Assembly: GCF_017348835.2 (NCBI RefSeq)
Contig: NZ_CP071375.1
DNA: 64,000 nt
Reading direction: 5' to 3' (one strand)
Origin: Escherichia coli
GTDB lineage: Bacteria > Pseudomonadota > Gammaproteobacteria > Enterobacterales > Enterobacteriaceae
Shown here piece by piece: positions 51,301 to 54,300 of this stretch. Made by a program: the position numbers. Position 1 is the stretch's first letter. Every line of letters starts with the position of its first letter.

Positions 51301-54300
51301 GTCGTTCTCGAACCATCATCGCATGTGTGCGGGCGAACAGTTGATTTAGCGACTCAACCAGTGGTCGTACTTCGCTGGGTACGCCAGTCGCGTTTAGTGG
51401 TTTTTCCGAGTCAGGGTCACGCATACGTAGCGCCAGCGCCAGCTTGTTCAGCGGCGCGAGTTCACGACCCAGTAGTACCATCATGATGATTAACATAATC
51501 GGCAGTGCAACCAGCCACGGGATCAATTGCCCGGCAACAATCGCCAGCGCCATGTCTTCACGGTATTCCCATTCCTGACCAACAACGATGCGATATTTGC
51601 CATCAGGTGAGGTCATCCAGACAAAACGCCAGGGATCGTCTTCACCGACCAGTTGCCCGTCAGCAAAACCTTCCCGTTGATAGCTATAGGGAATATCTTC
51701 TCCGTTATCGCCATCATTAAGGACCATTCTGCCGTCGTGGGTAAAGATGGCAAAGGTCAACGCATCGTCATCAACATGACCGTGTTTTAATTTATTCGGC
51801 GTCTGTGCCATGCGATCCGCCGCGTTGATTTCGTTGAGATCGAGCGTACTTAACCGCTTGGCAAACAGCATCAGTTGGGTGTCGAACAACTCATCGACGT
51901 TATCCGTTGTTTGTTTCCAGGCGACAAAGCTGGAAAGCAGCCAGGTCACCGAGGCCAGAATTAAAAAGATTAGCGTCAGCCTGACTCGCAGACTAAGACG
52001 TTGGGTAAATTTCATTTCTCACCTAATGTATAGCCAATACCATGCACGGTACGAATAAAATCACTACCGAGTTTGCGTCGCAGATGATGCACATGCACTT
52101 CAACGGCATTACTGGTGACCTCTTCGTCCCAGGTATACAGTTTCTCTTCAATCAGTTTGCGCGGCAGTACCCGACCAGCGTTACGCATCAGTAATTCCAG
52201 CAGGGCAAATTCTTTTGGTTTCAGTGTTAAGGGTTCGCCAGCCAGCGTGGCGATACGTTTGCCGGGGTCGAGCATGACGTTACCGTGGCGCAGCTCGTTG
52301 CTGGCCTGGCCGTTGGTTCGGCGCATCAGAGCTTCCAGCCTGGCGGCGACTTCTATCAACGCAAAAGGTTTACACAGATAATCGTCAGCTCCCAGACGCA
52401 GCCCCTCTACACGTTCCGCCAGCGCATCGCGCGCGGTCAGGATCAGTACCGGCTCACGCTGACCTTTTTCTCGCCATTCGCGCAAAATATCGCGACCATC
52501 CATGCCTGGTAAGGTTAAATCCAGGATCACCGCATCATAAGGCGCGCTATAAAGCGCCTCTTTTCCCTGACGACCTTGTGTAAACCAGTCGACGCTAAAA
52601 CCCATTTTACTAAGGCCCGTTTTGATGCCGTCGCCAATCAGCATGTCATCTTCTATCAGTAAAATTCGCATTTTTTCATCCCTGCGATAACCGTATTTGC
52701 TGCCAGTAAACCGTGTTGTAACGCGCTCTGTACAGCATTAAATTTTATTTTTTTCCCTTAAGAAGTTGTTAAGGACTATCTTGTTAAATGCTCGGAAACA
52801 GACATTAAAGGGAGTAACAAACATGAAAAAATTCGCAGCAGTAATCGCAGTAATGGCCCTGTGCAGTGCACCGGTGATGGCAGCAGAGCAGGGCGGTTTT
52901 TCTGGCCCATCGGCAACGCAAAGTCAGGCTGGAGGATTCCAGGGGCCGAACGGCAGCGTAACGACTGTAGAAAGCGCAAAATCCCTGCGTGACGACACCT
53001 GGGTAACCCTGCGCGGCAATATCGTTGAACGCATCTCTGACGATCTCTACGTGTTCAAAGATGCCAGCGGTACTATCAATGTTGATATCGACCACAAACG
53101 CTGGAACGGCGTGACGGTGACGCCGAAAGATACGGTTGAGATTCAGGGTGAAGTCGATAAAGACTGGAATTCTGTTGAAATTGACGTCAAACAGATCCGC
53201 AAAGTAAATCCGTAATTGTTACCGCTCCCGGGATGCGTTCCCGGGAATAATTTCGCAGGGAGGCAACATGACAAACCTGACACTGGATGTAAACATTATC
53301 GATTTCCCATCAATCCCTGTGGCGATGTTGCCGCACCGCTGTAGCCCTGAGTTGCTCAACTACAGCGTGGCGAAATTTATCATGTGGCGTAAAGAGACGG
53401 GGCTTTCTCCTGTTAACCAAAGCCAGACTTTTGGCGTCGCCTGGGACGACCCTGCCACCACCGCACCGGAAGCGTTTCGCTTTGATATCTGCGGCAGCGT
53501 TAGCGAACCGATTCCCGATAATCGTTATGGTGTGAGCAATGGTGAACTTACCGGTGGACGTTATGCCGTGGCCCGCCACGTAGGCGAGCTGGATGATATT
53601 TCACACACGATATGGGGCATTATTCGCCACTGGCTGCCTGCAAGCGGCGAGAAAATGCGTAAAGCACCGATTCTGTTTCACTACACCAATCTTGCCAAAG
53701 GGGTGACAGAGCAGCGACTGGAAACGGATATTTATGTGCCGTTGGCGTGATGGGGTATCTTTACCGGAGTGTGAGCCAAATCACTCGCGATAAGTTTGAG
53801 CGAACAATGCCACAGGCGTATTGTTGTTGGGCTTATAATTTCTCCGGTAAGGAATACCATGTATACGCGAAATTTATTATGGCTGGTCAGCCTGGTAAGT
53901 GCGGCTCCTCTCTACGCTGCTGACGTTCCCGCCAACACACAGCTCGCCCCGCAACAAGTCTTTCGTTACAACAATCATAGCGACCCAGGTACGCTCGACC
54001 CGCAAAAGGTGGAGGAGAATACTGCTGCGCAGATTGTGCTGGATCTGTTTGAAGGTCTGGTATGGATGGACGGTGAAGGCCAGGTGCAGCCCGCTCAGGC
54101 TGAACGCTGGGAGATACTGGACGGCGGCAAGCGCTATATTTTCCATCTGCGTAGCGGTTTGCAGTGGTCCGACGGTCAGCCTCTGACGGCAGAGGATTTT
54201 GTCCTCGGCTGGCAGCGCGCGGTTGACCCGAAAACGGCAAGCCCTTTTGCTGGCTATCTGGCACAGGCGCACATTAACAATGCCGCGGCTATTGTTGCGG

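Follow-up and report, generated by a model that had tools for sequence, protein, structure and literature searches.

An ygiV-ygiS junction of apparently ancestral form, without the mqsRA toxin-antitoxin cassette, in a PE164-like strain of Escherichia coli

In Escherichia coli K-12 MG1655, the toxin-antitoxin (TA) pair MqsR/MqsA (YgiU/YgiT) is encoded within the gene order parC-ygiS-mqsA-mqsR-ygiV-ygiW-qseBC, which reads ygiV-mqsR-mqsA-ygiS in the orientation adopted here, and the interval between ygiV and ygiS measures 1030 bp. MqsR is a ribosome-independent mRNA interferase of about 98 aa, and MqsA is an antitoxin of about 131 aa with zinc-finger and helix-turn-helix parts, encoded immediately downstream of the toxin gene. 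The mqsRA locus belongs with the type II TA loci that vary among E. coli chromosomes and are regarded as horizontally acquired intergenic cassettes: its presence depends on the lineage, and the cassette is low in GC and placed between core genes. Type II TA systems are unevenly distributed among E. coli phylogroups (Fiedoruk et al. 2015; Ramisetty and Santhosh 2016, as referred to in passages of PMC7167474 and PMC5120126), and a comparison of MG1655, W, EDL933 and UTI89 revealed no TA system common to all four (PMC7167474). With respect to MqsRA itself, no homologue was found in the AIEC strain NRG857c (PMC7232551), and PCR surveys detected mqsRA in roughly half of urinary isolates (PMC11059956). 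Presence or absence of mqsRA is a known and common polymorphism, and the locus described here is one more cassette-free example among the variable type II TA loci, with nothing new to distinguish it in that respect: the absence is correct but ordinary.

The DNA analysed (the window, a stretch of 64,000 nucleotides) differs from the chromosome of strain PE164 (NZ_CP114128.1) at 3 of 64,000 positions, and strain F2_81 is almost as close. Positions 39001-64000 form a single match of 100.0% to PE164, so that the 3 differences by inference lie outside this part. Judged by this comparison, the strain of the window is essentially PE164, though not letter-identical to the PE164 record. PE164, a hybrid aEPEC/ExPEC strain of serotype O108:H9, comes from a piglet with bloody diarrhoea. 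It falls in a chuA-positive set, and the strains that share its O-antigen cluster belong mostly to phylogroup E (PMC12233904).

Within the window, ygiW and qseBC lie upstream of ygiV, and parC lies downstream of ygiS. Both ygiV and ygiS are full length, with products 98.1% (YgiV, over 160 aa) and 99.6% (YgiS, over 535 aa) identical to those of K-12, and their limits are the same in the RefSeq annotation of the near-identical strain PE164 (Table 1). The TGA stop codon of ygiV occupies positions 53748-53750 and the ATG of ygiS positions 53859-53861, leaving a spacer of exactly 108 bp. An earlier note made from the sequence had described ygiV as followed directly by ygiS after about 108 bp, with no small ORF pair in between, and had given the K-12 order as ygiV-mqsR-mqsA-ygiS; both statements proved accurate. 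Two mechanically predicted ORFs touch the spacer, one of 42 aa on the minus strand (53732-53860) and one of 58 aa on the plus strand (53747-53923). Both extend into the ygiV and ygiS coding regions and resemble neither MqsR nor MqsA.

Table 1. Position and nature of the features at the ygiV-ygiS junction, in window coordinates
Feature	Position	Strand	Basis
ygiV, GyrI-like/AraC-family regulator, intact, 160 aa	53268-53750	+	ORF; PE164 annotation
ygiV-ygiS spacer, 108 bp, unoccupied (ancestral) form of the K-12 mqsRA site	53751-53858		colinear with E. albertii, E. whittamii and divergent E. coli
GGGTA, 5 bp replaced by the 927-bp cassette in K-12	53753-53757		junction comparison
101 bp upstream of ygiS, 100% identical to K-12	53758-53858	+	blastn (K-12 interval 930-1030)
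Inverted repeat, left arm, 12 nt (TCTTTACCGGAG)	53758-53769		repeat search
Inverted repeat, right arm, 12 nt (CTCCGGTAAGGA), just before the ygiS start	53842-53853		repeat search
ygiS, periplasmic substrate-binding protein of an ABC transporter, intact, 535 aa	53859-55466	+	PE164 annotation

The chromosomal site, the order of ygiW, ygiV, ygiS and parC, and the 101 bp upstream of ygiS are the same in the window and at the K-12 mqsRA locus. The window differs in lacking the whole 927-bp cassette, i.e. mqsR and mqsA with their promoter and operators and the hairpin that follows mqsA, and in having 5 ancestral bp in its place. The boundaries of the cassette were taken from blastn and from direct comparison of the junctions. 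After ygiV, the window and K-12 both read ...GCCGTTGGCGTGATG; the window then continues with GGGTA-TCTTTACCGGAGTG..., and K-12 with 927 bp (CCTGACTCCAGC...GCAACTCGCTTTTT) followed by TCTTTACCGGAGTG... In exact terms, K-12 equals the window up to TGATG, the 927 bp replace GGGTA, and the identical 101-bp segment follows. The 5 bp read GGGTA in the window and GGGAA in other unoccupied E. coli alleles, the T being a private SNP of this lineage, and K-12 stripped of its cassette differs from the unoccupied alleles solely in that these 5 bp are missing.

Within the K-12 segment lie mqsR and mqsA, the two ACCTTTTAGGT operator palindromes and, directly behind ygiV, a terminator-like hairpin; a second hairpin, AAAAGCG/CGCTTTT, was read by eye behind mqsA. 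Its GC content of 41.1% (40.1% for mqsR and 42.2% for mqsA) compares with 52.6% for ygiV, 52.1% for ygiS and 50.5% for the window. Neither terminal inverted repeats nor a target-site duplication were seen in the end sequences of the cassette, and a transposon-like mechanism is therefore not indicated. MqsR-family modules with 61-68% amino-acid identity are found on plasmids of Rahnella, Rouxiella, Pectobacterium, Burkholderia and others, which is consistent with a mobile origin of the cassette.

The spacer of the window contains no scar or remnant of the cassette: when the K-12 interval was used as a blastn query, the shared 101 bp were the sole match in the whole window. The two arms of an inverted repeat, 92% complementary and 72 nt apart, bracket the region upstream of ygiS, and the right end of the K-12 cassette abuts the left edge of the left arm (53758). 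A perfect TATAAT was read by eye at 53834-53839, in the 101-bp segment. A putative ygiS promoter is listed in Table 1 of PMC5120126; a simple promoter scan reported none for ygiS in the spacer. The single terminator-like hairpin of the spacer (53807-53819) is weak and has the same counterpart in K-12.

The earlier note had also held that the mqsR-mqsA pair itself was absent, and this was borne out at the DNA level for the locus, for the window and for the PE164 and F2_81 chromosomes. A tblastn search of the 64-kb window with the K-12 proteins retrieved neither MqsR nor MqsA (best E=1.6). No gene for the MqsR toxin was found in the window or in the PE164 and F2_81 chromosomes, nor one for an MqsA antitoxin immediately downstream of a toxin gene. 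The MqsA operator palindromes, ACCT-N(2-4)-AGGT, are likewise missing from the spacer; the K-12 cassette holds two of them, and elsewhere in the window the motif matches twice (47811 and 50563), with 1.2 matches expected by chance. The two near-identical chromosomes were searched with a chimeric query joining 9 kb of the window (41001-50000) to a 60-bp probe across the mqsR stop and mqsA start. Both chromosomes, which ranked at the top, matched positions 1-9000 of this query only, at one place per record, and thus did not contain the probe; mqsRA-positive genomes, serving as positive controls, matched positions 1-9060. Similarly, F2_81 matched a query made of the whole cassette and its flanks at a single place and over the flanks only. 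The finding that could have overturned the claim, mqsRA elsewhere in the genome, was not made at the DNA level, and by these searches the strain is to be regarded as free of K-12-type mqsRA anywhere in its genome.

The distribution of the cassette was examined in 5,426 complete E. coli genomes. mqsRA is present in 2,298 of these (42%) and absent from 3,128 (58%), and every copy shares 99% identity or more with K-12, whereas the flanking genes range from 95 to 100%. A cassette so uniform is consistent with having been acquired once, and relatively recently. Diverged copies (65-99% identity) were not found, a sensitive blastn mode returning the same 2,298 genomes, and no mqsRA was detected on plasmids among the complete E. 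coli genomes. Cassette and both flanks occur together in 2,290 genomes, so that essentially every copy resides at this one locus. Two E. coli "plasmid" records with mqsRA in PLSDB resemble chromosomal material: NZ_CP141089.1, at 4.94 Mb, is a chromosome filed as a plasmid, and NZ_MG591698.1 measures 354 kb. Some mqsRA-positive genomes (HUM3355; O25:H16 F5505-C1) have an IS1 inside mqsR, and in at least one (30EVA1) mqsA is only partial, which indicates that the mqsRA module also decays in place.

Genes ygiV and ygiS are adjacent, or separated only by the cassette, in 4,013 genomes, and about 1,720 genomes (32%) have the exact architecture of the window. Another 1,357 genomes (25%) lack both mqsRA and most of ygiS. 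This ygiS-deleted allele, exemplified by FORC_043, resembles the window in having no mqsRA and in retaining the ancestral unoccupied junction; it differs in that 236 bp stand in place of ygiS between codon 8 and a point close to the 3' end of the gene, whereas ygiS of the window is intact. The 236-bp filler (6613-6849 of the FORC_043 locus, equivalent to 53881-55424 of the window) is single-copy and unannotated, and gave no match in Rfam. One genome has a 93.6% match to it within a gene whose annotation reads group II intron maturase domain protein, and the filler is probably a group II intron remnant, as judged from this similarity.

The polarity of the difference between the window and K-12 is given by other members of the genus. 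A scan for YgiV with one genome per species yielded 5 loci, all from Escherichia: E. albertii, E. whittamii, Escherichia sp. E1V33, Escherichia sp. MOD1-EC7003 and the divergent 'E. coli' SCPM-O-B-8794. In all 5, ygiV is directly followed by ygiS or a degraded ygiS, then by parC, and MqsR/MqsA is absent from the ygiV-ygiS junction in 5/5 of these non-coli or divergent Escherichia genomes. Degradation of ygiS took place independently in Escherichia sp. E1V33 and MOD1-EC7003. Wherever ygiS is intact, the spacer is colinear with that of the window, both in the outgroups and in the divergent E. coli GPEC464, TO60 and ERL05-1306. The spacer of these three is unoccupied in the same way, and their flanks reach only 96-98% identity to those of the window or K-12. 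The unoccupied junction of E. albertii, E. whittamii, SCPM-O-B-8794, TO60, GPEC464 and ERL05-1306 is 108-111 bp long and follows the pattern TGA-(N)GGGNA-TCTTTACCGGAG...TATAAT...CTCCGGTAAGGAATACC-ATG; the window deviates from it by point changes only, among them the private A-to-T change within the 5 bp. The window thus shares with the outgroup species a colinear spacer in this size range (108 bp), has no trace of a cassette, and retains the 5 bp that K-12 lacks. Since outgroups and divergent E. coli share the unoccupied junction, the genus is ancestrally unoccupied at this site, and part of E. coli has gained mqsRA. From this comparison of sequences, the K-12 state is to be read as derived and the junction of the window as the ancestral form.

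We consider it highly probable that the window carries an ancestral ygiV-ygiS junction which was never occupied, and that the cassette was inserted in K-12 and its relatives. A foreign cassette of 927 bp, containing mqsR and mqsA, the promoter of the pair with two operator palindromes, and a hairpin at either end, would have been inserted just after the ygiV stop codon in K-12 and relatives, replacing 5 bp. This would most likely have happened once, in a sublineage of E. coli, from which the cassette would then have spread. The strain of the window would stand outside the cassette-bearing lineage, its own lineage never having carried the cassette, and almost certainly it never acquired one. 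It is improbable that the lineage formerly carried the cassette and then lost it, whether through deletion or through homologous recombination importing an unoccupied allele, even though core loci of E. coli recombine frequently and the flanks of the window resemble those of mqsRA-positive genomes (99.0%) and of many mqsRA-negative genomes equally closely. Deletion could yield this junction only by recreating the ancestral 5 bp (GGGAA/GGGTA) missing in K-12, which makes simple excision very unlikely and leaves an allelic swap by homologous recombination as the sole route to loss. Such a swap would leave no trace, the 101 bp upstream of ygiS being identical to K-12, but all outgroups and some 3,100 complete E. 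coli genomes have the same unoccupied allele, and over 25 kb the closest relatives of the window give a single uninterrupted match, implying that the cassette is absent there too. Two further proposals, that the PE164-like lineage reverted by homologous recombination under selection against mqsRA, or that the left edge of the inverted repeat is a preferred landing site for TA cassettes, are long shots.

Residence of mqsRA, or of a functional equivalent, elsewhere in the genome is highly improbable: the K-12-type probe found no match in the PE164 and F2_81 chromosomes, F2_81 offered a single place for the cassette-plus-flanks query, tblastn retrieved nothing from the window, and among the complete genomes there is neither an E. 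coli plasmid with mqsRA nor a copy of 65-99% identity. What speaks for it is that modules of the MqsR/MqsA family exist on plasmids of other Enterobacterales and that the whole-genome searches were made at the DNA level. That the cassette was collapsed or dropped during assembly has a negligible probability, as the junction is identical in the two independent complete genomes of PE164 and F2_81, the same architecture recurs in about 1,720 complete genomes and in other Escherichia species, and a single-copy, non-repetitive cassette gives no cause for collapse.

Several further features of the window were noted. K-12 and FORC_043 have the gene for the DUF2645 inner-membrane protein YgiZ between qseC and mdaB; the window lacks it, and qseC and mdaB are only 109 bp apart there (50557-50665). 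Between ygiN and parE, which are 48 bp apart in K-12, the window has a 7.2-kb iron-siderophore uptake island (approx. 42394-49586) with genes for an RpiR-type regulator, a substrate-binding protein, two FecCD permeases, an ATPase and a TonB-dependent receptor. This island may correspond to the 'fit' locus, which it resembles, and a 9-kb query spanning it was covered over at least 80% of its length in about 1,870 of the 5,426 complete genomes. The ygiL-yqiGHI fimbrial operon of K-12, which is disrupted by IS2 there, is absent at 30661-30694, ubiK and glgS being about 34 bp apart. Lastly, an island at 1-6633, beyond mug and a tRNA-Ile gene (6732-6807), contains remnants of DUF4942, DUF957 and DUF5983, together with an IS1 (4505-5202). 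An 8.9-kb gene on the minus strand, of which the first 3,968 bp are in this island, runs off the edge of the window and encodes a protein with a TcdA/TcdB-type glycosyltransferase domain. This gene may be one for lymphostatin (lifA/efa1), which would fit an aEPEC background.

The suggestion of the earlier note that absence of MqsRA may matter for persistence and biofilm phenotypes finds little support, because the phenotypes of biofilm, stress and global regulation ascribed to the pair were not reproduced in K-12: isogenic deletion of mqsRA in K-12 had no effect on expression of csgD, cspD or rpoS, on biofilm, or on tolerance to peroxide or deoxycholate (PMC6918082). The role of TA systems in persistence is itself contested, as a review of the model puts it (PMC7167474). 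Nor does the absence stand out as a notable loss, given that the unoccupied site is both the ancestral state and that of the majority of the complete genomes.

These observations guard against taking K-12 as the reference state, MqsRA being an accessory cassette carried by about 42% of complete E. coli genomes. For PE164-like O108:H9 strains, models of persistence, biofilm formation or bile response based on MqsRA are inapplicable, while ygiS, the proposed target of MqsR, is intact in them. With ygiV and ygiS only 108 bp apart and the hairpins of the cassette lacking between them, the two genes might be co-transcribed in such strains.
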